A DNA stretch of 64,000 bases from Gammaproteobacteria bacterium (GTDB taxonomy: Bacteria; Pseudomonadota; Gammaproteobacteria; JBCCGL01), in NCBI GenBank assembly GCA_965277715.1, contig OZ255836.1:3232001-3296000 (forward strand). The letters are read 5' to 3'. The notes beneath the pieces were generated by a model, which saw only the letters and a list, made by a program, of their open reading frames with translations, did not search any database and was not told the origin of the DNA. The position numbers and the translations under genes are program-made. Below are positions 32,577 through 61,425 of the stretch, piece by piece (the stretch's first letter is position 1; every line of letters starts with the position of its first letter).

Positions 32577-32580
32577 TACT

Positions 32581-33982: not shown

Positions 33983-34049
33983 CCTGCTAAAGGGTGAAAA
34001 AGTGTTTAATTTTAATGATCTTTAGACAGCTATTTGGTATTATTACGCG

Positions 34050-35657: not shown

Positions 35658-35679
35658 AGGCTGATTTAAGGGCGCTTAC

Positions 35680-36196
35680 CAAGGACAGTGACTGCTATCA
35701 CCACCACTTTCAAATGGCGGATCTTGAACAGCAGCGTGTGCTTTCACCCCACTGCGCTATCCATGTACTGGAACTGGAAAAGTGGCGACGGCACCATAAC
35801 CTTGAAGCAAAAGATCAATGGATGTATTTTTTTAAGGATGCAGACAAATGGGAAGTACTTCCCACAGACCTTGATACCGAAGAAATGAGGCAGGCGATGG
35901 CCATATTGAAACGATTTTCAGAGAAAGAGCAGGATTACCACCTTTACCAGGCCCGGCAGAATATTCTTCGGGAGGAAAAGTCCCGGCAGCGTTCACTAAG
36001 CGAGGCGGTTAAGGCGATGAACGACGAACGCAGACAGAAAGAATCAGAGCGCAGACAGAAAGAGGAGGAGCGTAGGCAGAAATAAGAGGAACGCAGGCAG
36101 AAAGAAGCCGCACTTCAAGAAAAAGAGCGGCTATACGCTTTGTTGAAAAAGGCGGGCATTGATCCTGATCTTGAAGAGGAAGAAAGCGATAACTGA
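35680..36196 (+). pseudogene. 5'-truncated copy of the Rpn gene with an internal stop
   Basis: Near-identical to 37984-38458; starts exactly at the IS66 end; TAA at 36083 within four 21-bp repeats. Confidence 0.9.
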
Positions 36197-36256
36197 TTTA
36201 ATAACCCATTGTACTGACACCTATTGACAGTACAGACACTTAGGAAAAACAAGGCA

Positions 36257-37390
36257 GTGTTAACAGGTTTTTCTATTACTCAACCCCAATTGGCTAAACA
36301 ATGTCAATTTGTTTGGTTGCGTGCGTTATGGGTGCTGTCTGCCTGTCTGTTCCTACCTGCTATTACCTACGCGGTTAATAGTAACCCCCCGCTCAGTTTT
36401 ACCCCTATTCCCGGCGATCCGTTTCGAGACCCTGCAATTCTCGCTGAGCTTGCCGCGCTTGAAGCCACGGTTGATGACACTGATTTGATGTTTGAAGCGG
36501 ACCTGGCATTACGTAACCAGCCCAGGGAGTGGGAGTACATGCTTAAGCCGGATGAGAAGCAAACCCCGATTAATGATTTGCGTTATTACGACAACCGTGA
36601 CCAACTGACCTGGGGACACTTTACTCTCACCAAACAACCCGCTAGTGAGACTGGCCGAGAAGCGGTAGAGCTGTTTCGCCAACTGGCCCAGGGGCGTGGA
36701 GGTGAGTGGCCGAGAATAATTCAACGTTTGGAAAGGGCGCAATCAGAAAATGATCACATTAGTGGTGCGTTGTTAGGTTGGTGTTTTCTGTACGGTTTGG
36801 GTGTTGTGCAAAGTGACGCCCAGGCGTTTGCGTATTTTCGCCGGGCCGTGAAGGCGGGAGAGCCATCGGGGCACTATGATTTGGGTCGGCTGGTGACGCT
36901 TGGCCGAATCGATGCGTTTGAGGCGGGCATGAAAGAGGCGGAGCGAATCCGCGCCAGCGGGGAAGAAGCGCAAGAACTTGAAGAACGCAACAAACAACAT
37001 AAGAAGAACGAGAAAACCTTTCGTAAGTCCTGGCTAAAACAAGGTCGGAACCAAAAGCGCAGCAACGACAACAGCCCACGATTTATTCCACCGCAACCCA
37101 AGAACCCCCTATCGAGTGTACTGACCTTGCCCCTGGCAATGGGGAGCAAGCGGGATAAACCGGAAGAATTAAAAGAACTGGTGAGCTATCACCACTACCG
37201 CAAGGCGGCCAATCAGGGGCAGGCGCAAGCCAGCTATGCAATCGCTTATGGGTATATTTATGGTTGGCCACAATCCCAGTTTCCGTCACTTGATCTCAAA
37301 CGTGGCTGGGAGTGGATGGAAAAGGCGGCGATGTATCAGCTTTATTTGGCTTATAGCGGTTCATTGTCGACGGCACGGATGAAACGCTGA
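36257..37390 (+). CDS. Exported Sel1-like repeat protein, 3' end replaced by an RTX-gene fragment (candidate immunity protein)
   Basis: Signal-like N-terminus; LGWCFLYGLGVVQSDAQAFAYFRRA, YRKAANQG.AQA and WMEKAA Sel1 motifs; GTG 36257. Confidence 0.7.
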   Translation: MLTGFSITQPQLAKQCQFVWLRALWVLSACLFLPAITYAVNSNPPLSFTPIPGDPFRDPAILAELAALEATVDDTDLMFEADLALRNQPREWEYMLKPDEKQTPINDLRYYDNRDQLTWGHFTLTKQPASETGREAVELFRQLAQGRGGEWPRIIQRLERAQSENDHISGALLGWCFLYGLGVVQSDAQAFAYFRRAVKAGEPSGHYDLGRLVTLGRIDAFEAGMKEAERIRASGEEAQELEERNKQHKKNEKTFRKSWLKQGRNQKRSNDNSPRFIPPQPKNPLSSVLTLPLAMGSKRDKPEELKELVSYHHYRKAANQGQAQASYAIAYGYIYGWPQSQFPSLDLKRGWEWMEKAAMYQLYLAYSGSLSTARMKR

Positions 37391-37512
37391 GCATCATCGG
37401 TGCCGATGGCACAGACACGCTACTGGAAGTGGAATACCTGCACTTTCTGGGTGATGTTGATACCGACCTGGTGCGTGTTGACCACCTGATGGTGATGCTC
37501 AAAGACCAACAG
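37374..37512 (+). repeat. 139-bp copy of the giant RTX gene interior (44537-44675)
   Basis: 7 mismatches in 139 bp (manual alignment). Confidence 0.93.
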
Positions 37513-37612
37513 TGTCACCCAAACAATGTTTTATCCTCAATGATGGCTTACACAGACGAAGGTGGTAGACTGGCGTTAGTTATAGCCACTCAGTGCTGCC
37601 AACAAACACACC

Positions 37613-38461
37613 ATGCAACCCATTGACCCAAAAATTGATTGTGTCTTTAAGGCCATCCTGGGCGCACCGGAAAATACCCCACTGCTGATTCACTTTCTCA
37701 ATGGTGTACTCACGCCTGAGAGTCCGATCACAGACGTTGAAATTCTCAACCCCTACAACGAAAAGGAATACCTTTCAGACAAACTCACCATAGTCGATAT
37801 AAAAGCCCGTGATGCGGCCAATAACACCTATCAGGTGGAGCTGCAATTAAATATATTCCCCTATCTACCGGAACGGATGCTTTACTGTTGGAGTGATATT
37901 TACGGTGCACAGATTCAAAGTGGGCAGGACTATCACAAGCTGCAACCCTCAATATCTATCTGGCTATTGGGTGAAAATCTATTCAAGGACAGTGACTGCT
38001 ATCACCACCACTTTCAAATGGCGGATCTTGAACAGCAGCGTGTGCTTTCACCCCACTGCGCTATCCATGTACTGGAACTGGAAAAGTGGCGACGGCACCA
38101 CAATCTTGAAGCGAAAGACCAATGGATGTATTTTTTTAAGGATGCAGACAAGTGGGAAGTACTTCCCACAGAACTTGATACCGAAGAAATGAGGCAGGCA
38201 ATGGCCATATTGAAACGATTTTCAGAGAAAGAGCAGGATTACCACCTTTACCAGGCCCGTCAGAACATTCTCCGGGAGGAAAAGTCCCGGCAGCGTTCAC
38301 TAAGCGAGGCGGTTAAGGCGATGAACGACGAACGCAGACAGAAAGAATCAGAGCGCAGGCAGAAAGAGGAGGAGCGTAGGCAGAAAGAAGCCGCACTTCA
38401 AGAAAAAGAGCGGCTATACGCTTTGTTGAAAAAGGCGGGCATTGATCCTGACCTTGAATAG
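37613..38461 (+). CDS. Rpn-family PD-(D/E)xK nuclease (recombination-promoting nuclease/putative transposase)
   Basis: IDPKIDCVFK.I.G, LNP, VDIKA.D...YQVELQ, R.LY.W, ELEK; C-terminal ERRQK repeats. Confidence 0.9.
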   Translation: MQPIDPKIDCVFKAILGAPENTPLLIHFLNGVLTPESPITDVEILNPYNEKEYLSDKLTIVDIKARDAANNTYQVELQLNIFPYLPERMLYCWSDIYGAQIQSGQDYHKLQPSISIWLLGENLFKDSDCYHHHFQMADLEQQRVLSPHCAIHVLELEKWRRHHNLEAKDQWMYFFKDADKWEVLPTELDTEEMRQAMAILKRFSEKEQDYHLYQARQNILREEKSRQRSLSEAVKAMNDERRQKESERRQKEEERRQKEAALQEKERLYALLKKAGIDPDLE

Positions 38462-38519
38462 GTTATTGAGTGACAGATTAGCTCAGCAAGCAAAATATGA
38501 AGTTGCTCTCTATGCTTAA

Positions 38520-38747
38520 ATGTCTACTATACCTACTGCTGTCGACTATGGTTTTTTATTGGTTGGCATTTATAACAGACCCGATGAACGAGGCCTGTCA
38601 AATACTGATTGGACGTCATATGGAGATGACGGAGATAGACTCAGTTTCGGCCTAAGAATCCAAACCTACCAATACACAAACTACCCAAATCATGTGGTCT
38701 TTACAGTTGGCGGCACAGATTTTTGGTTTGGATGCGAGCTTGAGTGA
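38520..38747 (+). pseudogene. Truncated N-terminus of a lipase-like (alpha/beta hydrolase) secreted protein
   Basis: Y...IY ... GL....Y...NHVVFTVGGTD resembles the 'vViafRGT' strand of lipase-3/DUF2974 domains; degenerate RTX-like GNAADDNI follows. Confidence 0.45.
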
Positions 38748-39080
38748 TGGTGTGGAACAGAGTGAAACGGGGGCGAAGTACGCACGACCGTCTCAGGTAA
38801 TGCGGCAGATGATAATATTCACTGCATGAGTAAAAGACGTGAACTTATCCTCATCAATGAAGTTGGCACCTATTTATTCAGGCAGGCAGCTTGACAGATT
38901 GCCCGACCATCAAAACGTAAAGTTGCTCTTTATGCATTGAATTATAAGCAATAATTGAGGTAAGCTTGATTTCCGTTTTGGCCAGTAGAGGTAAGTTGGC
39001 CAGGGGAACAAAGCGACAACTGATTCGATGACCCACAGCACCCGATGCTACAGGTGCGACAAACACAGGAAAACAAGGCA

Positions 39081-39921
39081 GTGCTGAAAGGTTTTTCAAT
39101 ACAACAATTCAGATTGATTTGGGTACTGTCGATGCTAGGTGCCTGTCAGCTTGCGTTAGCCACTCAGTCGGCGAGTATCGAGCACCCCATCCAATATAGT
39201 TCTGGCGAGATTAAACCAGCATCCACAACCACCACATCTGATTTATTGATATTTGGAGCACAGCGTATGGATATCTCCCAAGAATTGGCACCCCCCAAAA
39301 CCACCCTGGCACTTAGAGAGCGGTATACAAAAGATATCACGATCATGCATGTTTATCTTGAGCAAAAAGATAGGCGTGTTTATTTTGAAGTCCCCAGAGC
39401 CTATTTTTACTGGCAACTAGATAAGATAAAAGACGGTGCGAAACTTAACAACATCAAGATCATAGCAGCGATTAATGAGGGCATGATACCCTGGTCACTG
39501 GCAAAAAAGTTCACTAAAAAAAAAATCACACGATGATATCGCAATTCAAATTGGGCTGAGTCGGCCCGGCTACCCCATTAAAAACTCTGCAATACCTCGC
39601 ACTGTTGCTAAATTTTCCAAAAATTACTGGGGAATTTATAGAGATGAGTTCGAGCGATATGATAGAAACATAATAAAAGGCAATAAGAAACCAATTACTT
39701 TCTTTTTAGTCCCAACAAAACCAGAAAAACCAGTTCTATATTTAGATTGCCCTAATATTGGCAATCCAAAAGCTGTAAATTGTACAGTAACAAGTGATTT
39801 TTCTGACGGCCTATCTTACAAATTTTCAATACCCTTAATATACGTTAATGATGTCTACGAATGGGATAAAAAAGTGCGCAGCTTGATACAGTCATTGATA
39901 GCGCCTTCACAGACAGGCTAA
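39081..39921 (+). pseudogene. Exported protein gene split by an A10 tract (39516-39525); candidate cognate immunity gene of the giant RTX protein
   Basis: With A9 the frame continues SHDDIAIQ...LDCPNIGNPKAVNCTV...YEWDKKVRSLIQSL to TAA 39919, 14 bp before the giant ATG. Confidence 0.75.
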
Positions 39922-39935
39922 GGAACAGGTTAAAA

Positions 39936-54900: not shown

Positions 54901-56705
54901 CCACCTCAACGCTGGATGGCGGTGCGGGCCAGGACACCCTGAACCTGACCGCCGGGGGCAGCTATGACCTGAGCAATGCCATGGGCATTGAAAATATCCA
55001 CGCCACAACGGCGGCGAATGTCAGCGTCCGTATAGGCAGTGGCACGGATGACCTGGATATATTCCTGCACGAAGACAATGTCGATACCCTGATTGGCAGC
55101 ACGGTGGCCAGTAGTCTGAATATCAATATCAGCCGCGATGCCTTTGTCGACTACCTGCACCAGAACCGCAGTGATTACGGCCTCGACAAAAACGACAACG
55201 GCGACGATACCCTCACCTACCAAGGCCATACCTTTACCCTGCGGGATATCGATACGCTGGCGTTTAACGATGGTCAACAACTCTATTTGGATACGCGCAA
55301 TAATGCACCGATCCGGGTGGGTGACGGTGCCACCTTTAGTGGTTTTGAAGACGTGGCATTGACGCTGGATACCGCCGTGATGGTGGGTCAATACTACGAT
55401 ATTGAGCGGGAGGCATTAACCGTCAACCAGTACAGCGTAACGGTTGCAGGGGATATTGACGGTGCATGGAATGTGGTGCAATTGGGTGAGAATATTCACG
55501 GTAGCCGCTCGGGGACTTACAGTGTTTCAGACGGGCACAATACCTCGGTGACTAACAGCCTTACTACGGATTTCCAGCCGGTGAATGATGCACCTACCAT
55601 AAGACAGTTCTATTACACTAAACAGATATATGGTCTGAGTAATAATCGTGTTGACCGTGTCTATTTTGAAGTAACAGATAGTGACAACTCTGGTGATCAA
55701 CTCAATATAACGGCATCTGGAAATGGGGCACAAACCCCAGTGCGTTACTCGATATCCGGCAATACGGCGAATTTTTATGTCGATGTGTACGGGGTGTTAT
55801 TTGGTCGAGGAACCGGGGTCGGGGTCAATCACAATCAATTTACCGCTACCGCTGGGGATATATCAGGTGCTCAGGTAAGTATCACTGCTGGATTGAACTA
55901 TTTGCGTAGCTTCTATGGATCAAACGGTGGCTGTACAGGACAGGATTGTCATGGTGGAAATAATAGACCCATTTTCCTCGATTTAAATAACGACGGTTTC
56001 GCTTTTGAGGCCAATGCCGTCAACTTTGATTACGACAGCGATGGCACACTGGAGACCGGCGCCTGGCTGGCCGACAGCGCTGACGGCGTCCTCGCCATCG
56101 ACTACGACGGCGACGGCATTGTCACCCACGGCCATGAAATTGCCTTTGCCGATTGGCACCCGGATGCACAAACCGACCTGCACGGCCTGCAACTGGCCTT
56201 TGACACTAACCAGGATGGCCTGCTGAATGCACAGGACGAGCGCTGGCACGAATTCGGCGTATGGCGGGACGCCAACAGCGACGGCATCACCGACAACGGC
56301 GAATTCCTCAGCCTCGAAGCCATGGGTATCGAAACCTTCTACCTGGTCTCTGATAACGAATACCGCCAATTCGACGGCGTGGATGTACACGGCATCGGCC
56401 AGTTTGAATACACCGATGGTCGCCGCAGCGACTTTGCCGATGCCACGGTGTACTATCACGACGACGAACCAGAAACCCCGACACCAGCGCCTGGTGAAAC
56501 AACCCCCGCTGTGGCCAGTACCGAAGATTCACCCCCTCCCGCATTGATCGACCCCAACGAGGAAGCCGATGCCATCGCCAACCAATTGGCCAGCATCATC
56601 AACCAACTGGCGGGCAGTGCGCTGAGCGACAGCGAACACGGTATCGTCGAGACGACCGAACCGGCTCACGATTATGTTGATGACCATGACACCCTGGTAG
56701 GGTAA
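39936..56705 (+). CDS. Giant 5,589-aa T1SS-secreted RTX protein (toxin/adhesin hybrid)
   Basis: LysM (~41079-41217), Gly-rich hydrophobic helices (~41820-42250), GGxGxD repeats (~43680-44490 and ~54410-54950), 26 DTDGSE Ig-like repeats, FrpC SPM-like domain; adjacent hlyB/hlyD/hlyC-like genes. Confidence 0.93.
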   Translation: MNIYDILNVESVDRLTSADVNIMQSLLDNGQRAEVYLYYNQRTGGHANDAMVMQAGITTYTGAIGGAALEGNYQARIENPGGYNLGLDDFSAFIVQGVIDAVESDINGDFAPGSGTGILTGDQIFSSDYGQWRSLELGDAFPGNIYQIDNEWDPLFFDDNEEWSIDGFIEDLEHNADFVGGAVNNALEAGLGALHLGKRFDEFPAEQYDRIVYDDNVILFVNKATGGVDGVWDSSNIGNILIAGTAVVDNIISDDYTNGDALDVDGAAFREREDKWEFMGANGREYDPSKEYDGSTVYTQSVENVLDFFKERGINVENVEDIYKLYRAIKEADINNVPLSDYLSRFGLEETVSTFTDNGDTEEDNNFIDGPTDHADSPQATTYQLQDGDTLSQIAADNGTTVEALLAANPQITDPNAIRAGDTLVIPTQENTSPTENDQHSDTPHYNNAGNPHSDDQAAATNGQDVSGTESAIAGGYSSGGEGEFAGTPIDGLAVYDNEDQLDDSPYVASPDATPEDLANDDYDPDYDAYTDQGDSSSSYSSPGNPHYDAGDVLAEHNQAQGIGSSIATGIDNLINANNNLNDFERFALSTVLQTGTQNIISESYSDLAETMSVEEITGFEDFFDDLGSTALNVGAGMLTGAITADLVSELGWNEEWSAVAGSALNVGVGAVVDSFIAEGVGAISSVGDTFTGAYSASGIGNIGTNIVVNIATSELMESLGIGQTKTGALFATIGSIIGQIFIPIPFLGAAIGQVIGGLIGDLFSSPPPPPQAEITLSFNADTEEYEQTGGWGEHGGNPASLTGGGEHLSAMVEQYQLLLESYGGQLANRHELPDVVLGFRGNEQYIMVNGEQVGTMSEHGFKSATGSLLNEMVIEGGNSYLNHVLYSDVPPAELGDLLSSAQQRILYDNNPASKGVIDALLAEQSETMQRYDELSARQAQLESEIAHLEIEINRLSNPPRVNVDKGEWVEGEISPASYAAIARYSASLAEAHEELTNVEAGLLSLLDVEAIDAAQATLRDLHEQLEAYGQEAEISTLSADDLHALATIEGQINSTQVVLETAGASLQQAQHWHSVLAQTAPYQDMLSSEHELDDATRFDYELSYLNGIRSQNDEAQFSLHDTDLSDLVLVRDGDALTLYNRRGFDTDTPLDALPAMTFDDFGQWTNDRINLTFTNSDGEVVETSFFIGQLFDVAEQVNDGEPVDTLDMAVIVAGLYSDYLGAQMTPDEALALRFGGLGSIDTAGSRQGGAGDELLFAYSGAVYAGGGNDVVVANEAANSIDGGSGEDVVSYLHSEEGVSVNLASGEGQGGHAEGDTYENIEHAVGSRHNDQLTGDGNSNRLSGMEGDDILAGGGGGDTLIGGSGQDTADYSASGEGVNVWLSGSQRDTGAEIAGHGQYSDAQGDSLAGIEHIQGSDHDDLLVGNANTNLLWGGEGSDTLRAGGGDDQLVGGQGADRLYGGGDKDKLFGGEGRDYLSGGSGDDSLLGGRGDDALLGGEGDDVLYGEAGDDLLVGGAGDDTAVFSGRYTDYQFAVTDETLSILGADGTDTLLEMEYLHFLGDVDTDLVRVDHLMAMLKDQQREDEEEVDDGAPNRSNGNTFNLAGVSAASLIATFMAAQAAARENPDLQGETPDTLFTQGQTPSDEDEQTTEAGTANPAPQFNEVEASGTQANGALPLPTQSGLTAGTGVPPIGDPLTQPGDTTGAPTNPANGQPPTDTAEGLAGEGGNPAQTNTTEAPIAEEAEASEGTPPEDPAEQPATDPLPPITRPFLAPSVTLANRVTQEDQSIALQIDVNGNNALELISVFIDGLPQNAHLSAGTQQSDGRWRLSLNELAGLTLTPAADDDRDIRLSVSVTTQNLADGRIATVEQPLIIDVQARADTPVLTVGDAQGDEDTAIALSIQSLLTDTDGSETQSIEIANVPAGARLNQGAPIGGGVWQLRPEQLSGLTLTPPADSDEAITLQITSTSRETENGNSVQRTATLTVTVNAVADTPQLLVQAVQGDEDTAIGLNIQSTRVDTDGSETQYIEIANLPTGAHLNQGIDLGNGTWRLRPEQLTGLSLTPAANSSEALALTVTAYSVETGNGASTQTSATLHVVVNAVADAPVLTAQAATGSEDTAIALAIQSALTDTDGSETQTLEIANVPAGATLSQGVDLGNGRWRLTPEQLSGLRLTPAANSDQDFVLNITAFSRDANGSEAQSTTTLAVNIIAGADAPVLTVQAAQGPEDTAIALNIQAALSDTDNSERLSVEIANVPAGARLNRGADLVDGRWQLTAEDLSGLTLTPATNSGEHIALAVTAISTERVNGAESRISTTLNIAVDAVADAPQLATQAAQGVEDSAINLNIQSVLSDTDSSETQHIEIGNIPTGARLNQGVLQSNGTWRLNPEQLSGLTITPPANSAENIALTVTAYSTESANGDVAQTRTTLNVSVDAVSDAPQLAVQAARGAEDSAIALNIQSVLSDTDGSETQHIEIANIPTGASLNQGVLQSNGAWRLNPEQLSGLTITPPANSAENIALTVTAYSTENANGDVAQTRATLNVSVDAVADAPQLAAQAARGAEDSAIALNIQSALTDADGSETLHIDIANLPVGANLNRGTQQSDGSWRLTPAELAGLTITPPANSDENFELTVTAYSTESEGGDTAQTTATLNVVVDAVADAPVLSVQAARGVEDTAIALTIQSALTDTDGSETQYIEIANIPTGASLNQGVLQSNGAWRLNPEQLSGLTITPPANSAEDIALTVTAYSTESRGGDVAQTTATLNVVVDAVADAPVLSVQAARGVEDTAIALTIQSVLSDTDGSETQYIEIANIPTGASLNQGVLQSNGAWRLNPEQLSGLTITPPTNSAEDIALTVTAYSTENANGDVAQTRATLNVSVDAVADTPQLAVQAARGAEDSAIALNIQSVLSDTDGSETQYIEIANIPTGASLNQGALQSNGTWRLTPEQLSGLTITPPANSAEDIALTVTAYSTENENDDVAQTRTTLNITVDAVADAPLLQTVAATGLEDTDIALTIQPSLVDTDGSETLRVRISDLPTGASLNQGTRQVDGSWLLSAAELSGLHITPAPNDHSDFTLTVTAYSTESGGDEAQRSVALPVTVQAVADAPTVLASPALGSEDQAIALSIQLNLIDASEQVSIRISDLPTGSVLNQGERQSDGSYQLTAAELSGLSITAPPHSDTDFALTVTATTQEANGTQADTTVSLPVTVTAVADGPDLTVQAAEGDEDATIALNIQSALIDTDGSETLHIDIGNLPAGASLNRGTQQSDGSWRLTPAELAGLTITPPANSDEDFELTVTAYSTESRGGDVAQTTATLNVVVDAVADAPTLVVQAAQGNEDTAIALNIQSALIDTDGSETLHIDIANLPAGASLNRGTQQSDGSWRLTPAELAGLTITPPANSDEDFELTVTAYSTESRGGDVAQTTATLNVVVDAVADAPTLVVQAAQGNEDTAIALDIQSALTDTDGSETLHIDIANLPVGASLNRGTQQSDGSWRLTPAELAGLAITPPANSGEDFELTVTAYSTESRGGDVAQTTATLNVVVDAIADTPTLVVQAAQGNEDTAIALNIQSTLTDTDGSETLHIDIANLPAGASLNKGTQQSDGTWRLIPAELAGLTITPPANSDEDFELTVTAYSTESEGGDTTQTTATLNVVVDAIADTPTLVVQAAQGNEDTAIALNIQSTLTDTDGSETLHIDIANLPAGASLNKGIQQSDGSWRLTLAELTGLSITPPANSDENFELTVTAYSTESGGGDTTQTTATLNVVVDAVADAPTLTVQASQGNEDTAIALDIQSALTDTDGSETLHIDIANLPAGASLNKGTQQSDGTWRLTPVELAGLTITPPANSDEDFELTVTAYSTESEGGDTTQTTATLNVVVDAVADAPTLAVQAAQGNEDTAIALNIQSTLTDTDGSETLHIDIANLPAGASLNKGTQQSDGTWRLIPAELAGLTITPPANSDEDFELTVTAYSTESEGGDTTQTTATLNVVVDAIADTPTLVVQAAQGNEDTAIALNIQSALTDTDGSETLHIDIANLPVGASLNRGIQQSDGSWRLTPTELAGLTITPPANSDKDFALTVTAYSTESRGGDTIQTTSTLNVVVDAAADAPVLTVQAARGNEDTDIALNIQSTLIDIDGSETLHIDIGNLPVGASLNRGIDRGNGTWRLTPAELAGLTITPPANSDKDFELTVTAYSTESRGDDTAQTTATLNVVVDAVADAPTLAVQAAQGNEDSTIALNIQSTLIDTDGSETLAIEIANLPAGANLSRGIDQGNGTWRLTPAELAGLAITPPVNSDKDFELTVTAYSTESRGGDVAQTTTTLNVVVDAVADMPTLTVQAAQGNEDTAIALNIQSALIDTDGSETLAIEIANLPAGASLNRGIQQSDGTWLLTREQLTGLTVTPPANSDQNFNLAITAYSREGTNGPVAQRSATLPVTVNAVADTPTLVVQSAQGNEDTAIALNIQSALIDTDGSETLAIEIANLPAGASLNRGVQQSDGSWLLTREQLTGLTVTPPANSDQNFNLAITAYSREGTNGPVAQRSATLPVTVNAVADAPTLVVQSAQGNEDTAIALNIQSALTDTDGSESLTIVVSGLPAGARLNHGTDLNNGSWQLTPAQLSGLTFTPPTNSDQDFNLTVTAYSREGANGSMAQRSATVPVTVNAVADAVQINLQVPNTAPTADLQVSVANGLGGQRIDGTFSHDSITGTAGNDVIDTEQFIQIPISASFVGADTDGSETLSDQLLVKPPGYNAPVSLASIGAGLAYNAQGQAYLLVPGARAGQTLELTLQVTATELRGGDTQVTQNTLAVVVPTRTSQGDTVDAGAGNDTVYGGGGADILRGGAGNDAIYAGAGNDTLYGDSGADTLSGGSGNDTFYADFSDIVDGGSGSDTLNFIQSGTVAIGNISNIETIQLHSGNDLITVSNSNTRIDGGAGNNTLTFSGAGHTFNSSAFSGFTSVHINLTAAADILNLGDAGFITATSTLDGGAGQDTLNLTAGGSYDLSNAMGIENIHATTAANVSVRIGSGTDDLDIFLHEDNVDTLIGSTVASSLNINISRDAFVDYLHQNRSDYGLDKNDNGDDTLTYQGHTFTLRDIDTLAFNDGQQLYLDTRNNAPIRVGDGATFSGFEDVALTLDTAVMVGQYYDIEREALTVNQYSVTVAGDIDGAWNVVQLGENIHGSRSGTYSVSDGHNTSVTNSLTTDFQPVNDAPTIRQFYYTKQIYGLSNNRVDRVYFEVTDSDNSGDQLNITASGNGAQTPVRYSISGNTANFYVDVYGVLFGRGTGVGVNHNQFTATAGDISGAQVSITAGLNYLRSFYGSNGGCTGQDCHGGNNRPIFLDLNNDGFAFEANAVNFDYDSDGTLETGAWLADSADGVLAIDYDGDGIVTHGHEIAFADWHPDAQTDLHGLQLAFDTNQDGLLNAQDERWHEFGVWRDANSDGITDNGEFLSLEAMGIETFYLVSDNEYRQFDGVDVHGIGQFEYTDGRRSDFADATVYYHDDEPETPTPAPGETTPAVASTEDSPPPALIDPNEEADAIANQLASIINQLAGSALSDSEHGIVETTEPAHDYVDDHDTLVG
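45250..53965 (+). repeat. Tandem array of 26 ~336-bp (~112-aa) Ig/cadherin-like coding repeats
   Basis: Recurrent G.EDTAIALNIQS.L.DTDGSE...DAVADAP at ~336-bp period, counted by hand. Confidence 0.9.
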
Positions 56706-56741
56706 AACGGTATGTAATTCCCCACTAACACGGAAAACCAA

Positions 56742-58904
56742 ATGATAAAAAAAATGGAGCCTCTGCCACCGGTTGATTCGGCGTTTCAATGTTTTGCCCT
56801 GTCGTTGCACTTGCTGGGTATCCAGGTGGATACCACGATTCTGCGGCGTGACTACGGCAAGGCGGAACACTGGAACTCGACCGATATACTCCAGGCCGGG
56901 CAGCACTTGTTTTCCCTGAAAACCAAACGCCGCCGTGTGTCTAAACGCCAGCTCAAACGCCTGCCCACCCCCTGCATTCTCGAAGGCCGGGATGGTGAGT
57001 ACCTGCTGCTGATCAAATGGCAGGACGACGACCAGGCGATTGTGCAGCGACCGCTGCACAATAAAGGTGAACAACTGGACGCGCACGCGCTGCATGATCT
57101 GATCGGTGGCAAGGTAATTCTGCTGGCCAAAGGCCACAAGGTGGAGGAGAAGCCCTTCGGCCTCGGCTGGTTCTGGCGGGAGTTGCTCAAGCACCGCATG
57201 GCGTTTTCACAGGTGTTGTTGGCGGCGGTGATGTTGCAGGTGTTCGCCATGGTGACGCCGCTGTTTTCCATGATTGTGATGGATAAGGTGTTTTCATCCA
57301 GTGGTTACAGCACGCTGGATGTGCTGTTTGTCGGCCTGCTGGTGATTACTGTGTTTGACTTTCTTATCGGTCTGTTCCGGCGGCATTTACTCACCCACGC
57401 CACCACCAAGGTCGATGTGATTCTGGCGGCGCGGGTGTTTCGCCACCTGCTGCATTTGCCCATTGGTTTTTTTACCCAGCGGCAAACCGGTGATACCGTC
57501 ACCCGCGTGCGCGAGCTGGAGAGCATCCGCACGTTTATTACCGGCAGCGGTTTAACGGTGTTGATCGACTTCCCGTTCGCGTTTTTATTGGCAGGCTTGA
57601 TGTATTTATTTAGCCCGCTGTTGACGGTGGTAGTGCTGATCGGCGTGGCCCTGTGTTTTGTGGTGTACGCGATTACCTCGCCGTTCCTGAAAGACCAAAT
57701 GCAGGAAAAATACAAAATGCACACCGATAACCAGTCGTATCTGGTCGAGACGGTGCGCGGTATGGATACCCTCAAGGCGCTGGCACTGGAGCCACAAATG
57801 CAGCGGCGCTGGGAAAATCAGGTGGCGGAACACAGCCGCTTTGCCTACTTCAGTGAACGCCTGTCGACTAACGTGGGACAGCTCGGCACGATTATCAACA
57901 AAGGCACTATCGCCATCACCATGTGGTTGGGGGCCACCGCCGTGCTCGACGGGCAGATGACACCGGGGCAAATGATCGCGGTGAATATGCTGGCGGGCCG
58001 GGTGATGGCGCCGTCGATGCGCATTGCGCAAATGCTGCAACAACTGCATCAGGTCAAAATTTCGGTGCGGCGCCTGCGCGAGGTATTCGATACCCCCCAG
58101 GAGGTGGGGGTGAATAGCGAGCACGCCATGCAGCCGGATATCAAGGGCCAGATCGTGTTTGATAAGGTCTCCTTTCGCTACACAGAGCAAAGCTCCCTGG
58201 TGTTGGAAGATATCGACTTTACCGCCAAAGCGGGTGAGATTATCGGTATCGCCGGGCACTCAGGCTCTGGTAAAACCACCCTGCTGAGCCTGCTGTTGCG
58301 GTTGTACTCCCCCAGTAGCGGCAAAGTGCTGCTGGACGGTATGAACCTGGCGCAGCTCGACCCCAACTGGATTCGCCGCCATATTGGCGTGGTGCTGCAA
58401 GACAATTTCCTGTTCAATCTGTCGGTGCGGGACAACATCGCCATCGCCGACAGCAACCTCTCGCAGGCGCGTATCGAGCAGGCGGCGGTGCTGGCCGGGG
58501 CCGATGGGTTTATCCGCGCCCTGCCACAGGCTTACGATACCGTGGTGGGGGAAAAGGGTGTATTGCTGTCGGTGGGTCAGCGTCAGCGCATCGCCATTGC
58601 CAGGGCATTGGTGATGGAACCCAAATTACTGCTATGGGACGAAGCCACCAGCGCGCTGGATACCGAGGCCGAGCGGTTGATACAAACCAATATGCGCGAG
58701 ATATGCCGTGGCAAAACCGTCTTCCTGGTCGCGCACCGCTTATCGACATTGCGCTGTGCCGACCGTTTACTGGTGATGAAAAATGGCCGTATCGTCGAGC
58801 AGGGTAGCTGGAATGCGCTGCTGGCGAAAAAAGACGGCGTATTCCGGCGCAGCTGCGAGATGCAAATGGCCAAAGTCAATAAAAAAACCGACAAGGTGGC
58901 GTGA
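56742..58904 (+). CDS. T1SS ABC transporter, HlyB family (C39-like domain without the canonical catalytic Cys)
   Basis: VDSAFQC N-domain, TM region, GHSGSGKTT, LSVGQRQR, DEATSALD. Confidence 0.95.
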   Translation: MIKKMEPLPPVDSAFQCFALSLHLLGIQVDTTILRRDYGKAEHWNSTDILQAGQHLFSLKTKRRRVSKRQLKRLPTPCILEGRDGEYLLLIKWQDDDQAIVQRPLHNKGEQLDAHALHDLIGGKVILLAKGHKVEEKPFGLGWFWRELLKHRMAFSQVLLAAVMLQVFAMVTPLFSMIVMDKVFSSSGYSTLDVLFVGLLVITVFDFLIGLFRRHLLTHATTKVDVILAARVFRHLLHLPIGFFTQRQTGDTVTRVRELESIRTFITGSGLTVLIDFPFAFLLAGLMYLFSPLLTVVVLIGVALCFVVYAITSPFLKDQMQEKYKMHTDNQSYLVETVRGMDTLKALALEPQMQRRWENQVAEHSRFAYFSERLSTNVGQLGTIINKGTIAITMWLGATAVLDGQMTPGQMIAVNMLAGRVMAPSMRIAQMLQQLHQVKISVRRLREVFDTPQEVGVNSEHAMQPDIKGQIVFDKVSFRYTEQSSLVLEDIDFTAKAGEIIGIAGHSGSGKTTLLSLLLRLYSPSSGKVLLDGMNLAQLDPNWIRRHIGVVLQDNFLFNLSVRDNIAIADSNLSQARIEQAAVLAGADGFIRALPQAYDTVVGEKGVLLSVGQRQRIAIARALVMEPKLLLWDEATSALDTEAERLIQTNMREICRGKTVFLVAHRLSTLRCADRLLVMKNGRIVEQGSWNALLAKKDGVFRRSCEMQMAKVNKKTDKVA

Positions 58905-58941
58905 TGAATCAGCCGAATAAACGCTCCTCGACACCTCCAGA

Positions 58942-58997
58942 GACTGCCTCAAAAGCCCCTCTCCCGAGCTGGGAGAGGGGCTTTTGCGACACCCCCG
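58942..58997. repeat. Strong intergenic stem-loop between hlyB and hlyD (REP or mini-IS-like)
   Basis: CAAAAGCCCCTCTCCC-GAGCT-GGGAGAGGGGCTTTTG, 16-bp stem. Confidence 0.7.
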
Positions 58998-59039
58998 GGA
59001 GGCAGCGTGTAAAGAAGGAGTCGGGAGGCTCAGTACCCC

Positions 59040-60371
59040 ATGAGTAAGCAGTATATAGAAAGTGATTTCCTCACCGGCATCGAGAGTATTCTCGCGGCGC
59101 GTTTATCGCTGTCTGCCTGGCTGGTCACCGGGTCACTGTTGGCGCTGGTCTCGGCGCTGTTGGTGTGGGCCTGGCTGGCGGAGGTCGATGTGGTGTCCCC
59201 GGCTACCGGGGAGGTGGTCACCCGTGCCGGGGTGCAGTTGATCCAGCCCAAAGAGCTGGGCGTGATTGCCGAGATACACGTTAGAGATGGCGATGCTGTC
59301 AGCCAGGGTCAATTGCTGGTGCAGTTGAGCGACTCACTACTCACCACCGAGCTGGACCAAGTAGCGCAGGAGGTCATGCAGCTGCGCTTGCAACGGCTGC
59401 GTCTCACCGCCATGAAACAATGCCTCGCCGGGCAGGTATGTAACCGGGAGTTACCCGATCAGGACGATATTGACCCAGACCAGCAGGATCAGGTCGAGTC
59501 CCTGCACTGGCTACAGTGGCAACACTACACCGCCCAGGTTGAGCTGCGTGAACACCGCCTGTTGGTGGCGAAAAGCGAGCTAAGCAAACAATCCCAGGAA
59601 GTGCGCAACGCCGAGGAGATGATGCCGTTTTACGTCAAGCGGGACGAGCGTATGCAGGCGATGGTCGAGGGTAGCCTCGCGGCGCAAAGCAAAGTCGAAG
59701 AGGCGCGTGAAAACCGCCTGCTGCAAAGACAACAACTGGACAACCACAAAATGGCGCTGCACAAAGTCTACGCCAGTGTTAATGTCGCCGAGCGCGAGCT
59801 TAACGCCTACCGCAGGGAATACGAAGAGCAGGTGCACACACAATGGTTTGAAGCCCAATCACAGCTTTCTGTCAAACAAAAGGAGATGGCCAAGCTCCAG
59901 CGCTATATTGCCGAGAAACGCCTGCTCAGCCCTATCGACGGGGTGATTTACGATAGCGCTGTGTCGACCCGCTCGGGCGTTGTGCAATCGGGCGAGGTGT
60001 TAATGAAGGTTGTACCCAGAAATGTGGCGCTGGAAGTGGCGATCAAAATTGCCAATAAAGACATTGGCTTTGTCAGTACCGGGGACAAGGTAAAGGTAAA
60101 AATCGACGCCTACAACTTTACCAAACACGGCTCTATCGTCGGGGTGATCAGCCACATTTCCGAGGCGGCGGTGCTCGATGAACAGCTTGGCCCGGTATAC
60201 CCGGCAACCGTGCGCATCGAGCGCTCGGATATTAGCGTGAATGGTAAGCAGGCGGCGATTATTCCAGGCATGACCGCCGTGGTCGATATTTACCAGGGCA
60301 AACGGTTGTTGGCCGAGTATGTGCTGGCACCGTTGATGCGCTATAAAGATGAGGCGTTGCGGGAGCGGTGA
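59040..60371 (+). CDS. T1SS membrane fusion protein, HlyD family
   Basis: N-terminal TM helix, VRDGDAVSQGQLL, coiled coil, SPIDG, NKDIGFV, PGMT. Confidence 0.95.
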   Translation: MSKQYIESDFLTGIESILAARLSLSAWLVTGSLLALVSALLVWAWLAEVDVVSPATGEVVTRAGVQLIQPKELGVIAEIHVRDGDAVSQGQLLVQLSDSLLTTELDQVAQEVMQLRLQRLRLTAMKQCLAGQVCNRELPDQDDIDPDQQDQVESLHWLQWQHYTAQVELREHRLLVAKSELSKQSQEVRNAEEMMPFYVKRDERMQAMVEGSLAAQSKVEEARENRLLQRQQLDNHKMALHKVYASVNVAERELNAYRREYEEQVHTQWFEAQSQLSVKQKEMAKLQRYIAEKRLLSPIDGVIYDSAVSTRSGVVQSGEVLMKVVPRNVALEVAIKIANKDIGFVSTGDKVKVKIDAYNFTKHGSIVGVISHISEAAVLDEQLGPVYPATVRIERSDISVNGKQAAIIPGMTAVVDIYQGKRLLAEYVLAPLMRYKDEALRER

Positions 60372-60409
60372 AGGGTGAAATCGATTAATTATTTTATGGG
60401 GGTTTTTTT

Positions 60410-60841
60410 GTGAGTGAAGGGGATAATAAACAAACGATGGCGGGTGTGCTGGGGGAGGTTGTGTGGTTGATGCATAAGTCGCCCTCGCACCGGCAGGTGC
60501 TGATTGCGGAGTTGGATTGGTTGGTTATGCAGCCTATTTTGTTAAATCAATACCGCATTTATCACAAAGAGGGCAAGCCCGTCGGTGTGGTGTTTTGGGC
60601 CAGTGTGGATGATGATACCGCGCAGCGTTTGGGCCAGGGCAAGGCAAAGCTACGCAACCACGAGTGGAAGAGTGGCAGTAACTACTGGATTGTCGATGTG
60701 CTGGCGCCGTTTGGTAATGCCCAGTATTTTGTCGATGAAATGGCTAATAGCCTTTTTTCCGGTAAAGTATTCAGTTACTTGCAAACAGCGGCGGATGGCA
60801 CGCAAAAAATTGTAGAGGTCAATGCCGGTAAACCGCATTAA
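60410..60841 (+). CDS. RTX toxin-activating lysine acyltransferase (HlyC family), copy 1
   Basis: LGEVVWLM.KSPSH, P.LLNQY, WA, WKSG..YWIVD.LAPFG. Confidence 0.92.
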   Translation: MSEGDNKQTMAGVLGEVVWLMHKSPSHRQVLIAELDWLVMQPILLNQYRIYHKEGKPVGVVFWASVDDDTAQRLGQGKAKLRNHEWKSGSNYWIVDVLAPFGNAQYFVDEMANSLFSGKVFSYLQTAADGTQKIVEVNAGKPH

Positions 60842-60945
60842 ATGTTGTCTCCACCCTTATTACAAGGGTGCCGTAATGTGCCTCTCCCTGAAGATGAGAA
60901 ACTTTTAAGATACGCTTTATATTGGATAAAAACAGGTTAATAAAG

Positions 60946-61425
60946 ATGAATGAACAAGGCGGCATAAAAAATATCACGATTGGCGAAGTGTTTGGTGAGG
61001 CGGTTTGGCTGATGTCACAATCGGCCCGTCACCGGCATAATTTTTTCCTCGCCGACCTGGAATGGTTGTTAGTGCCACCTATTGCACACAATCAGTTCCG
61101 TATGTTTAAAGCCGATGGAAAACCCTTTGGTATGGCCTATTGGGGGCACTTTTCAGAGGAGGTCGAGGCGCGCTTCTCAAAGGGATCGATTAAACTCAAA
61201 TCAGACGAGTGGAACTGCGGTGACAGGCCCTGGCTGGTGGATCTGGTCGCCCCGTTTGGCCATGCGGATAAGATAATGGCAGACCTACAGAAAACCTCAT
61301 TCGCCAAGACCGGATTTAACTGTTTGAAAGTCGATGCCAAGGGCCAGCGTGAAACCGTGTTTTATGCGGGTAAAGAGCAGAGCGCAGACACCACTGACAA
61401 ACCCGATAGCGGCGTGCTTCACTGA
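60946..61425 (+). CDS. RTX toxin-activating lysine acyltransferase (HlyC family), copy 2
   Basis: GEAVWLMSQSARH, PPI..NQF, WNCGDRPWLVDLVAPFG. Confidence 0.92.
   Translation: MNEQGGIKNITIGEVFGEAVWLMSQSARHRHNFFLADLEWLLVPPIAHNQFRMFKADGKPFGMAYWGHFSEEVEARFSKGSIKLKSDEWNCGDRPWLVDLVAPFGHADKIMADLQKTSFAKTGFNCLKVDAKGQRETVFYAGKEQSADTTDKPDSGVLH

Follow-up and report, generated by a model that had tools for sequence, protein, structure and literature searches.

Genes for a type I secretion system (T1SS) follow a giant RTX gene in a gammaproteobacterial genome, and small exported genes and a fragment of the giant gene itself precede it. This arrangement raises the question of whether the giant protein is a delivery vehicle whose N-terminal part is exchanged together with a partner gene upstream. 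The locus lies in a 64,000-nucleotide stretch of contig OZ255836.1 (the window), to which all positions refer.

Layout of the locus

All elements listed in an earlier note on this DNA were recovered, in or near their places, by ORF calls, Pfam searches and comparison of the window with itself (Table 1), in the order IS66, Rpn', Sel1 gene, 142-nt fragment, Rpn, stub, small gene, giant gene, HlyB, HlyD and two HlyC genes.

Table 1. Features of the locus, with positions in the window.
Feature	Position	Strand	Evidence
IS66-family insertion sequence: orfA (33300-33617), TnpB (33614-33982), DDE transposase (34050-35657)	33300..35679	+	Pfam TnpB_IS66 E 1.8e-33; DDE_Tnp_IS66 E 2.7e-97
Rpn', 3' fragment of PD-(D/E)XK gene	35680..36179	+	Self-match, PDDEXK_2
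Upstream region and leader of Sel1 gene	36175..36276	+	Common to second small gene
Exported Sel1-repeat gene	36224..37390	+	Pfam Sel1 E 3e-9; hydrophobic segment aa 34-48
Giant-gene copy (aa 1533-1580), 142 nt	37371..37512	+	94.4% identity to 44534-44675
Rpn element, ORF 37613-38461	37598..38467	+	PDDEXK_2 E 3.2e-50
75-aa stub ORF	38520..38747	+	ORF listing, weak matches
Upstream region and leader of current small gene	38812..39100	+	Copy in metagenome contigs
Exported small gene, frameshifted, candidate immunity gene	39045..39921	+	Translations, hydrophobic leader
Variable N-terminal module of giant gene, aa 1 to ~378	39936..41069	+	Breakpoint versus P0237
LysM domain, aa 383-427	41082..41216	+	Pfam LysM E 2.2e-11
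Conserved non-RTX body, aa ~600-1330	41736..43925	+	Collinear with P0076, P0238, P0239, P0246, P0237
First RTX block, aa ~1283-1560, and motif after	43782..44675	+	HemolysinCabind E 9e-29, 7 stretches; GGxGxD positions
Stalk, ~26 tandem 112-aa cadherin/Ig-like repeats	45336..54185	+	Motif spacing, Pfam
Second RTX block, cadherin-like domain, C-terminal region	54459..56705	+	HemolysinCabind E 7.5e-21; Cadherin_5 E 1.6e-8
HlyB-type ABC exporter, N-terminal C39-like domain	56742..58904	+	ABC_membrane, ABC_tran, Peptidase_C39 E 1.2e-6
HlyD-type membrane fusion protein	59040..60371	+	Identity to HlyD-family proteins of relatives
HlyC-type acyltransferase 1	60410..60841	+	Pfam HlyC E 8.3e-38
HlyC-type acyltransferase 2	60922..61425	+	Pfam HlyC E 5.7e-36

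The giant gene (39936-56705) encodes 5589 aa. Its start is AT-rich, as had been noticed by eye: the G+C content is 0.401 in the small gene, 0.432 in the N-terminal module (aa 1-350), 0.524 in LysM and linker and 0.576 in the body (0.524 in the whole window), and the rise from 0.40-0.43 to 0.52-0.58 coincides with the junction of module and body. The module is predicted to be an all-alpha domain of an unnamed family (AF2 pLDDT 78.4); it has 116 relatives, and searches of Pfam, PDB and Atlas gave no match and no named fold or family, so that it can be called a toxin by analogy only. In three of nine relatives scanned, the module's counterpart forms the N-terminus of another RTX protein, in one case followed by a Hint autoprotease domain. 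L004, the sole relative for which surrounding DNA was available, is a free-standing protein of 478 aa, and the genes around it show no relation to the small gene of the window. LysM, which opens the conserved part behind the variable module, is also present in the homologue P0237. Within the body lie a coiled-coil region and hydrophobic segments of glycine-zipper type (aa 659-687 and 727-765); Gly-zipper_Omp matches were found in P0076 and P0238, and the window's giant protein itself has no glycine-zipper Pfam match. The stalk contains 25 DxDGSE-type motifs, 21 of their 24 spacings being 112 aa, and ends in Cadherin_4/5 and Big_9 matches. The C-terminal region presumably holds the T1SS signal, and a Pfam search of the protein gave no match to the RTX-toxin N-terminal domain.

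HlyB, HlyD and HlyC are present in all three genomes examined. The window's HlyB shares 73% identity with the exporter of genome G002 and 54% with that of G001, and its HlyD is 55% and 40% identical to HlyD-family proteins of loci L007 and L003 (the latter matching Pfam HlyD_3, E 4e-21). HlyC1, with 50% and 40% identity to HlyC of L007 and L003, is the orthologue of the relatives' single copy; HlyC2, which shares 36% identity with HlyC1 and 35-38% with HlyC of the relatives, is a diverged paralogue. HlyC as such accompanies the body family in three of three genomes; its doubling, by which the earlier note had proposed to find homologues, occurs only in the window.

The current small gene is read in one frame at 39045-39536 and continues in another to 39921 after a run of ten A (39516-39525); for the contigs from two sequencing runs of this organism no indel was reported there. 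Its product begins with a hydrophobic leader (aa 24-38, then ALA) and belongs to no Pfam family. The two exported genes of the window are unrelated beyond a common leader, just as the earlier note had described them: 36175-36276 and 39002-39100 share 70.6% identity over 102 nt (E 3.7e-5 within the window), with a core of 31 nt at 87%, and the proteins share 38% over 58 aligned positions (E 9e-4). An identity of only 70% in this 5' handle counts against a scheme of recombination between cassettes, as a leader so diverged is no obvious substrate for recombination.

Variable modules and their upstream genes

The homologue set comprised five clear homologues of the non-RTX body and one orphan copy; no body matches were found among 397 other sampled Gammaproteobacteria, only in two added genomes. 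Every body homologue has a different N-terminal module, in keeping with the proposal that these domains are swappable. P0237 is identical to the giant protein at 910 of 938 residues (97%) from aa 401 on and at 8 of 25 over aa 351-375, and its earlier part (555 other residues) is unrelated; the breakpoint lies within aa 351-400, with no relationship before about residue 378. P0076 and the giant protein are collinear from aa 624 of the latter onward to the end (43-45%), the first ~340 aa of P0076 being unrelated, and P0238, P0239 and P0246 likewise have other N-termini. Among nine N-terminal modules compared, the only two related within the module are the orphan of locus L002 and P0246 (E 8e-12), both lipase-like; the alignment shows P0246 without the serine of GxSxG. 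The match between the L002 orphan and P0076 (E 3.5e-4) is limited to the linker before the handle. The handle for recombination, which the earlier note had placed in conserved RTX sequence, consists of the conserved non-RTX body and the LysM region, and not of RTX repeats as such.

The directly upstream exported gene differs in all four loci with readable upstream DNA and co-varies with the module, as the earlier note had anticipated. It is the small gene at 39045..39921 in the window, the Sel1 gene that precedes the P0237 allele, a gene for a 315-aa lipobox-like protein whose end overlaps the giant-gene start in L002, and a gene for a 398-aa protein that ends 4 nt before the giant gene in L003. 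All four proteins have a hydrophobic N-terminal segment and, the window leaders excepted, are mutually unrelated. Because the family is very small, the co-variation rests on these four loci.

Spare cassettes and the elements between them

Upstream orphan cassettes with a piece of the conserved body, which had been postulated from the window, exist in two lineages. The 3' end of the window's Sel1 gene is cut by a deletion joint at about 37371-37375, and by frame arithmetic the 142-nt remnant of the giant gene is out of frame with the Sel1 ORF. Relatives of the organism occur in sponge metagenomes. Contigs from two of these, from two separate studies, carry the same Sel1 gene with 15 differences and a 21-nt insertion, in the order Sel1, 2832 other letters, body 41074-43890, truncation and a second leader-like region, and the window's "orphan" Sel1 gene stands there directly in front of the P0237 allele. 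Because Sel1 precedes this alternative allele, the Sel1 gene and the 142-nt fragment mark the two ends of a spare cassette that was deleted, and the Sel1 gene is the orphan partner of a module now gone from this genome. The array had been called decayed, and the metagenome relatives do keep a more complete version. In these relatives a copy of the current small gene's leader region follows the spare cassette: on contigs of runs X1 and X2, 38812-39094 is present with 42 differences and 5 gaps, and a spacer of 9 other letters connects it to 44262.

In L002, positions 510-2171 are an orphan in which a GxSxG lipase-like module is fused to a copy of the main gene's junction (83% nucleotide and 78% amino acid identity); by language-model features it resembles class 3 or Tle-like phospholipases (score 0.94, 200 of 256 features). 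The 75-aa stub of the window, which has no Pfam match, is possibly the start of a third, lipase-like module. It weakly matches the start of P0246 over 13 aa (E 0.12), and its description as lipase-like is a weak one, drawn from a GTD-type motif and a 28-residue match to the L002 orphan (39%, E 4).

At the window junction 35679/35680, contigs of three runs (X1, X3 and X4) continue differently. The left Rpn copy, 93.2% identical to 37984-38462 over 500 nt in the window's self-comparison and matching PDDEXK_2 at profile positions 120-224 only (E 3e-13), was probably truncated by the adjoining IS66. A joint of 38467 to 37598 with a 17-nt spacer is present in all four runs, and summed contig depth, a weak guide only, is several-fold higher over the Rpn element. 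Rpn is a repeated and probably mobile unit that lies inserted between cassettes, and looks like an incidental element outside the system. It was not found in the 3.2 kb of sequence upstream in L002, in L003 (where an IS200-type transposase lies instead) or at the equivalent place of the metagenome contig, which does not support an Rpn contribution to recombination or an enrichment of Rpn at such loci.

A proposed delivery system and its alternatives

We consider it fairly probable that the locus encodes a type I secreted, HlyC-acylated RTX protein composed of a constant delivery part and exchangeable N-terminal cargo with an upstream partner gene. Cassette polymorphism, co-varying upstream genes and stored orphans, the parts of the earlier interpretation that survive without the Rpn role, are seen in the sequences compared, together with a conserved T1SS and HlyC. 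The constant part would comprise LysM, glycine-zipper hydrophobic body, RTX block, ~26-repeat stalk, second RTX block and C-terminal export signal, and the cargo would be the N-terminal module of ~380 aa, forming one low-GC cassette with the small exported gene directly upstream, which on our reading would encode a periplasmic protective (immunity) protein. Upstream spares would hold a small gene, an alternative module and a stretch of conserved body, and a single crossover in the body would place a spare cassette before the full-length gene, the current cassette being lost. In this genome the Sel1 spare lacks its interior, another spare would be reduced to the stub, and the current small gene is frameshifted. 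We infer that the modules may be toxins against bacteria with a periplasmic site of action, that immunity may come from the upstream genes, and that the acylated hydrophobic-RTX part may carry cargo across the target membrane, the last from the layout of CyaA. The likeness of the L002 orphan, the RTX placement of the module's relatives and the published Sel1-like-repeat immunity proteins of T6SS phospholipases (PMC13736854) are hints of a toxin nature. The frameshift in the small gene, with the giant gene intact, sits awkwardly with an essential immunity function, unless the A10 run permits rescue by slippage or the cargo spares its producer. T1SS export runs C-terminus first, and the locus offers no account of the entry of an N-terminal module into a target cell.

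Given the sponge setting, exported Sel1 proteins and giant RTX proteins could instead serve host interaction. The protein would then be a modular carrier of toxins or effectors like CyaA or MARTX, its modules hitting eukaryotic (sponge or protist) cells and the upstream proteins being FrpD-like anchoring or secretion accessories, which we regard as unlikely. Acylation by HlyC typifies RTX toxins directed at eukaryotic membranes, host-interaction proteins commonly contain Sel1 repeats, close relatives lie in two sponge metagenomes, and with the giant gene intact a frameshift is more tolerable in an accessory gene. However, a small gene kept after loss of its module, as with Sel1 in the window, is the signature of an immunity gene and not of an accessory, a strict one-to-one change of upstream gene and module is needless for a generic anchor, and a peptidoglycan-binding LysM domain beside the cargo, with a Tle-like lipase module, points to the bacterial envelope as target.

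Distinctly less probable is an ordinary giant adhesin of the LapA/Bap type, with a periplasmic retention or anchor region at its N-terminus (LysM binding the wall of the producer), generic domain shuffling and unrelated neighbours. It would account for the ~26 cadherin/Ig-like repeats, the C-terminal RTX block, the T1SS and the position of LysM close to the N-terminus, which could stay behind because export is C-terminus first, as is established for LapA-type adhesins. Yet HlyC, unneeded by adhesin loci, is conserved with the family in all three genomes, no LapG/LapD-like genes were seen among the ORFs of the locus, the small gene overlaps or abuts the giant-gene start in L002 and L003, and random shuffling falls short of both the lipase-like orphan, whose handle is 83% identical, and the exchange of alleles on a body of 97% identity. 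It is very improbable that the locus is decayed junk or a misassembly of repeats with chance neighbours for cassettes, even though contigs of the compared runs break at Rpn, IS66 and RTX repeats alike and the small gene carries a frameshift. Two runs of this organism supplied independent contigs that match 36139-37403 with 0 differences and reproduce 38422-44566 and 38480-44428 with 1 and 0 differences, an alternative arrangement with the same novel 9-letter spacer occurs in two metagenomes of different studies, and two other genomes have a homologous architecture. As far as these contigs reach, the duplications are not the assembly artefact that the earlier note had named as a possible refutation.

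Several known systems resemble the proposed one in part. Bordetella CyaA (with CyaC, CyaB, CyaD and CyaE) has the same order of parts as the giant protein, namely N-terminal cargo, hydrophobic segment, HlyC-type-acylated region, RTX block and type I export, a layout which suggests that the RTX/hydrophobic part would carry the cargo across a membrane. The giant protein differs from CyaA in its polymorphic cargo, which comes with an exported partner gene, in having LysM, a 3000-aa repeat stalk and a second RTX block, and in its target, which is probably bacterial. MARTX toxins, whose effector domains are exchanged between strains by recombination, are likewise large type I secreted RTX proteins of varying effector content among close strains, but their effectors are internal, act inside eukaryotic cells and depend on a cysteine protease domain for their release, whereas the cargo here is N-terminal; partner genes and orphan arrays, both present here, are not known from MARTX, and the MARTX T1SS has two ABC proteins, compared with one here. 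Neisseria FrpD is a small exported lipoprotein, encoded immediately before an RTX gene, that binds FrpC in its N-terminal part; the likeness is one of layout, and we know of no polymorphic N-terminal modules or orphans for FrpD-FrpC. Caulobacter CdzC/CdzD, described in the available text of PMC5380434 as type I secreted, surface-retained glycine-zipper contact-dependent bacteriocins with an immunity gene, share type I secretion and the glycine zipper (here Pfam matches in two homologues only) and, unlike the giant protein, are small, unacylated and non-modular, without enzymatic cargo.

A literature search found no earlier description of such a locus. The available text of Zhang et al. 2012 (PMC3482391) does not contain the terms "T1SS" or "type I secretion" and, where it mentions the type I system, does so for large RTX toxins only. 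The only printed mention found of polymorphic-toxin-type domains N-terminal to RTX repeats, in the available text of Burroughs and Aravind 2025 (PMC12419801), concerns Min-Wnt (Lipocone) domains and is read there as a sign of T1SS export; it is a one-sentence remark on architecture, without locus organisation, upstream partners, orphans or HlyC. As in CDI (CdiA/CdiI) and Rhs systems, a constant delivery part here would bear a variable toxin tip, a small cognate gene adjoins the tip-encoding end, orphan partner genes outlast the presumed toxin part, and silent spare cassettes retain a conserved coding piece, because of which one crossover could swap the tip. Unlike in those systems, which use a T5SS or T6SS, the tip here is N-terminal, partner gene and orphans lie upstream, export is of type I with a C-terminal signal and RTX repeats, and HlyC acyltransferases belong to the locus. 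The layout resembles known bacterial toxin-immunity arsenals in mirror image.

Organization of the locus and the window's N-terminal module

Every element of the gene order described in the earlier note proved to be real, and all of them are located on the forward strand between 33.3 and 61.4 kb (see table). Contigs of the same organism from two sequencing runs speak against an artefact of assembly at positions 36139-37403 and 38422-44566, where they have no more than one difference from the window. The G+C content is 0.40 in the small exported gene directly upstream of the giant gene and 0.43 in codons 1-350 of the giant gene, and 0.52-0.60 from the LysM domain onwards. The nonapeptide repeats of the giant protein match the RTX family HemolysinCabind with E values of 9e-29 and 7.5e-21.

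Features of the RTX locus and regions of the giant protein it encodes
Feature	Position	Strand	Remarks
IS66	33300 to ~35679	+	
3' fragment of Rpn (PD-(D/E)XK nuclease-family) gene	35680-36179	+	93.2% copy of 37984-38462
Exported Sel1-repeat ORF	36224-37390	+	
Copy of part of the giant gene	37371-37512	+	142 nt, 94.4% identical to 44534-44675 (aa 1533-1580)
Complete Rpn gene	37613-38461	+	PDDEXK_2, E 3.2e-50
Stub ORF	38520-38747	+	75 aa
Second exported gene (the small gene)	39045-39921	+	frame change inside A10 run 39516-39525
Giant gene	39936-56705	+	5589 aa
Giant protein: all-alpha module	aa 1 to ~378		
Giant protein: LysM	aa 383-427		acidic linker next
Giant protein: conserved body	aa ~600-1330		glycine-rich hydrophobic segments 659-687 and 727-765; coiled-coil stretch
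Giant protein: first RTX block	aa ~1283-1560		
Giant protein: ~26 tandem cadherin/Ig-like repeats	after first RTX block		112 aa each
Giant protein: second RTX block and C-terminal domain	end of protein, beyond repeats		
HlyB with C39-like domain, HlyD, two HlyC acyltransferases	3' part of the 33.3-61.4 kb locus	+	
Second HlyC	60922-61425	+	

The two exported genes resemble each other only in the leader and the region upstream of it (70.6% identity over 102 nucleotides; 38% over 58 aligned amino acid positions). In both (36224-36330 and 39045-39165), the hydrophobic core of the leader is preceded by a long stretch, …KNKAVL[TK]GFSI…, that is conserved beyond the needs of a plain signal peptide. 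A motif of approximately 20 nucleotides (aagttgctctNtatgc...) is found at 38490-38522, directly before the ATG of the stub ORF, and again at 38911-38944, upstream of the leader of the current small gene; the loose end of a metagenome contig at 38515 runs on like the second copy. The motif may mark a site of recombination or of common regulation. Housekeeping genes (SecB, GpsA, isocitrate/isopropylmalate dehydrogenase) stop at 28635 and are followed (28924-33215) by the truncated gene of a phage-type integrase (28924-29586), then by a GNAT gene and ORFs without a name; alanine racemase begins at 61448. No tRNA was found between 20000 and 64000 of the window. The entire toxin locus may lie inside a genomic island.

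The N-terminal module of the giant protein was modelled by AF2, with an alignment of 48 relatives, as a helical domain (pLDDT 78.4, pTM 0.77). Foldseek gave no match to this fold in the PDB at E <= 0.001, VIA-align over 48,161 chains gave only generic helical bundles (best Z 5.4), a profile search of PDB sequences gave nothing, and Atlas gave no usable match. Across the 48 family members, no Pfam family was found in more than two, the only repeated match being to an RTX-repeat family. There are 116 relatives of the module at E <= 0.001 among 1.84 billion representatives, and in 32 of the best 40 of these the match starts within the first 50 residues. In three of nine relatives scanned, the domain stands at the N-terminal end of an RTX protein, and in one of these it is followed by a Hint autoprotease domain. 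That protein, P0161 (2540 aa), has the Hint domain at residues 315-378 followed by FG-GAP and RTX repeats, an order of domains that suggests release of its N-terminal module by self-cleavage. Another relative, P0128, continues with an 'LDLDGDG…' motif like that of the C-terminal domain of the giant protein (aa ~5380-5480), and so combines the two end domains of the giant protein without the stalk. The sole relative with DNA context is a stand-alone 478-aa protein, whose neighbours are unrelated to the small gene of the window. The module family was found in none of 399 sampled gammaproteobacterial genomes.

Exchange of N-terminal modules and upstream genes before a conserved body

Because RTX repeats swamp such searches, homologues of the giant protein were sought with queries confined to the non-RTX part of its body. 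Five clear homologues were identified: P0237 (1566 aa, from a 7,139-nt contig), P0076 (3400 aa, locus L002 of an uncultured gammaproteobacterium), P0238 (3458 aa), P0239 (2673 aa, locus L003 of Hydrogenovibrio sp. JE_KL2) and P0246 (1057 aa). With aa 440-1640 as the query, P0076 alone covered more than 35% of the query among 119 matches listed besides the protein itself. The family is tiny: a body search of the 399 sampled genomes gave matches at E <= 1e-8 in seven, five of them with only the last ~80 residues, where the RTX block starts, and true body matches were limited to the genomes of L002 and L003. A scan of JGI metagenomes with the body alignment gave 73 pattern matches, none of which was confirmed, and 19 of 20 matches in a later protein search were to LysM only. 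Two further candidates were set aside: a Rhodocyclales MAG from a single-sequence genome scan matches in RTX repeats only, and a distant LysM-bearing relative, P0240, was left uncounted, the apparent lysozyme-like motif at its start having given nothing relevant with phmmer against the PDB and nothing in Pfam.

In all five homologues, collinearity with the giant protein begins between aa 351 and ~700, and the N-terminus is different. The switch is sharpest in P0237. Of the 938 positions from aa 401 onwards, 910 (97%) are identical to the giant protein, against 19 of 23 for aa 376-400 and 8 of 25 for aa 351-375. Similarity is lost before ~aa 378, and 555 unrelated residues stand ahead of the equivalent of aa 351; this switch point lies just before LysM, at the same place as the step in G+C content. 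All-against-all BLAST of nine N-modules, including that of an orphan gene in L002, found kinship within the module only between this orphan and P0246 (E 8e-12), in which the serine of the GxSxG motif is missing; a match of the orphan to P0076 (E 3.5e-4) is confined to the linker ahead of the handle, the piece of conserved body that they share. The swappable N-terminal domains proposed in the earlier note are supported by five homologues and one orphan.

The gene directly upstream varies together with the module, as had been predicted. It is different in all four loci with readable DNA, and in each it encodes a protein with a hydrophobic N-terminal segment: the small gene at 39045 in the window; a 315-aa protein with a lipobox-like LNGC in L002, the end of its gene overlapping the start of the giant-gene homologue; a 398-aa protein in L003, ending 4 nucleotides before the gene; and the Sel1 gene in the metagenome relative. 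Apart from the leaders in the window, the four proteins are mutually unrelated. The small exported gene and the N-module form a cassette that is exchanged as a unit before the conserved body.

The small gene of the window carries a frameshift; the giant gene next to it is intact. The A10 run at the frame change has equal length, with no indel, in contigs of two runs, which cannot reveal minority lengths; slippage rescue or phase variation could occur at this run. A complex prediction that combined aa 1-350 of the N-module, supplied with its alignment, and the frameshifted protein split into its two halves as separate chains gave scores of 0.52, 0.10 and 0.00 against a mark of 0.32, which speak neither for binding nor against it.

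Genes for secretion and acylation travel with the family. HlyB, HlyD, HlyC and TolC are encoded in that order upstream of the L003 gene; in the L002 genome, all four are encoded on a 6-kb contig (C49). HlyB and HlyD of the window are 73% and 55% identical, respectively, to those of the L002 genome. The first HlyC of the window is the orthologue of the single copies of its relatives (50% identity in the L002 genome, 40% in L003). The second is a diverged paralogue (36% identity to the first, 35-38% to the single copies) that may act on another lysine or with another acyl chain. In L003, an IS200-type (Y1) transposase is found at positions 5497-7013, between TolC and the Sel1-like upstream gene, together with a 213-aa multi-pass membrane protein of no family. 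This membrane protein could add further protection, directed against the constant pore-like part.

Orphan cassettes and repeated elements

Orphan cassettes of the kind postulated in the earlier note, with part of the body retained, are found in L002, in sponge metagenomes and as remnants in the window. In L002, an orphan ORF (510-2171) upstream of the 315-aa gene consists of a module with a GFSQG (GxSxG) motif joined to a duplicate of the first part of the conserved body, after which the ORF breaks off; this handle is 83.0% identical to the main gene over 383 nucleotides and 78% over 129 amino acids. The orphan module resembles class 3/Tle-like phospholipases by language-model features (Atlas 0.94, 200 of 256 features), and its only Pfam match is Abhydrolase_3 (E 0.28). 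An AF2 model of the orphan from a single sequence (pLDDT 40) was unusable. Self-comparison of L003 found no internal orphan.

Contigs of public runs were aligned to the window at an identity of at least 85%. One sponge-metagenome contig of 7,139 nucleotides, equal in length to the contig of P0237, consists of the Sel1 gene (window 36249-37375, with a 21-nt insertion besides 15 differences), 2832 letters absent from the window, the body (41074-43890, 46 differences, followed by a short skip within the RTX block and 9 other letters) and a copy of 38812-39094, which precedes the current small gene of the window (42 differences). A second sponge metagenome, from a different study, has a contig with the same junction between the last two parts. 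This order of parts identifies the Sel1 gene as the one paired, on the upstream side, with the P0237 module in relatives, and the Sel1 ORF and 142-nt fragment of the window are the two ends of a P0237-type cassette after internal deletion. For a protective role of such a partner, the Sel1-like-repeat immunity proteins reported for T6SS phospholipases (PMC13736854) offer a precedent. Since the body is present in only one copy at an identity of at least 85% in these runs, the cassette may be either a spare that precedes a complete gene or the main gene itself in broken form. The two sponge-metagenome runs X1 and X2 have no coverage of 39417-40804, a hint that their strains are without the window's current cassette.

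The Rpn gene, which the earlier note had considered a possible aid to recombination, does not appear to belong to the system. The metagenome contig has no Rpn gene at the corresponding position, and neither have L002 and L003; in L003 the IS200-type transposase is found there. The left copy in the window matches positions 120-224 only of the PDDEXK_2 profile; the complete copy matches positions 1-224 of 229. The Rpn unit (37598-38467, 870 nucleotides) recurs in contigs of four of four runs with a head-to-tail joint (38467 to 37598) and the same 17-nt spacer, at a summed contig depth several-fold above that of its flanks, depth being a weak guide. The joint and depth could reflect copies in tandem, a circular form or a high copy number in the genome. 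Rpn and IS66 are read here as repeated elements that invaded the array and helped to erode it, and not as part of the mechanism.

Known classes of secreted protein and the proposed mechanism

The giant protein shares features with several known classes. Acylated pore-forming toxins of the HlyA/CyaA type also have RTX repeats, an adjoining HlyB/HlyD exporter and an HlyC-type acyltransferase, but homology to the N-terminal hydrophobic domain of RTX toxins (Pfam RTX, PF02382) was not found in the giant protein, Pfam matches in aa 1-1700 with E <= 0.01 being limited to LysM and HemolysinCabind; the protein does have glycine-rich hydrophobic segments. LapA/Bap-type adhesins resemble it in the ~26 repeats of 112 residues (Cadherin_4/5 and Big_9 matches), the C-terminal RTX block and type I secretion; no LapG or LapD gene is present among the ORFs of the locus. 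MARTX systems differ in having internal effector domains with a cysteine protease domain (CPD) and two ABC proteins; the window locus has one ABC gene, and no CPD was found in the parts of the giant protein scanned, aa 1-1700 and the last 1068 residues. The likeness to CDI and Rhs polymorphic toxins lies in a shared delivery part with unrelated tips and in orphan cassettes that keep a conserved coding piece; the co-varying adjoining gene is a candidate for the cognate immunity gene of such systems. The difference is that the tip is N-terminal, not C-terminal.

The structural and evolutionary core of the interpretation as a polymorphic toxin is supported: upstream copies retain body sequence, and type I secretion with HlyC is conserved. 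A single crossover between the body piece of an orphan and the main gene would fuse the orphan module to a full-length gene and delete the current cassette, which would be the mirror image of the activation of orphans by recombination in Rhs and CDI loci. The N-modules are candidate envelope-directed antibacterial enzymes, and their exported partners, as candidate immunity proteins, would protect the periplasm of the producer, where the N-terminus of a type I substrate may linger because it leaves last. The hydrophobic/RTX part, presumably acylated, would move the cargo across the target membrane; CyaA carries its own N-terminal enzyme across a membrane.

Tentatively, the locus may be a contact-dependent antibacterial weapon based on type I secretion with mirror-image genetics. 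Its HlyC-acylated hydrophobic/RTX module, held away from the cell by a long stalk of repeats, would deliver an exchangeable enzyme at the N-terminus (lipase-like or of other unnamed folds) into the periplasm of a neighbour. One crossover with a spare cassette upstream would be enough for a strain to change the weapon and to gain the periplasmic immunity gene that belongs to the new module. For the toxin nature of the tip there is a lead in the likeness of the L002 orphan to Tle-like/class 3 lipases; the module of the window is without a match. Points that weigh against this reading are the frameshift in the partner gene of the window, the very small size of the family and the loss of the motif serine in P0246. 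The sponge-associated life style would also suit a host-directed role.

Phage-like injectors and secretion of types II, IV, V, VI, VII and IX are the routes for which polymorphic toxin systems have been catalogued. To our knowledge, the catalogued systems all have a C-terminal variable tip and downstream spare cassettes; in type I secretion, if the reading proposed here is right, the geometry would be the reverse, the C-terminus being taken up by the export signal. Full-text literature searches gave no account of polymorphic toxins exported by type I secretion that have N-terminal tips, upstream partners or upstream orphans; supplements may hold relevant architectures. The nearest statement found in print, in Burroughs and Aravind 2025 (PMC12419801), is one sentence on Min-Wnt domains N-terminal to RTX repeats. 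Neither 'T1SS' nor 'type I secretion' occurs as a term in Zhang et al. 2012 (PMC3482391), where the type I system is referred to in connection with large RTX toxins.

If the reading as an antibacterial weapon is true, type I secretion would be added to the routes by which polymorphic toxins are secreted, and the family would be a source of unnamed effector and immunity folds as well as a natural system for N-terminal cargo transfer across the bacterial envelope by an RTX/acylated module. Further members would be sought by a simple rule, namely a variable N-terminus on a conserved RTX body with an exported gene just upstream and HlyC nearby, and giant 'RTX adhesins', of which symbionts and environmental bacteria have many, would merit re-reading.
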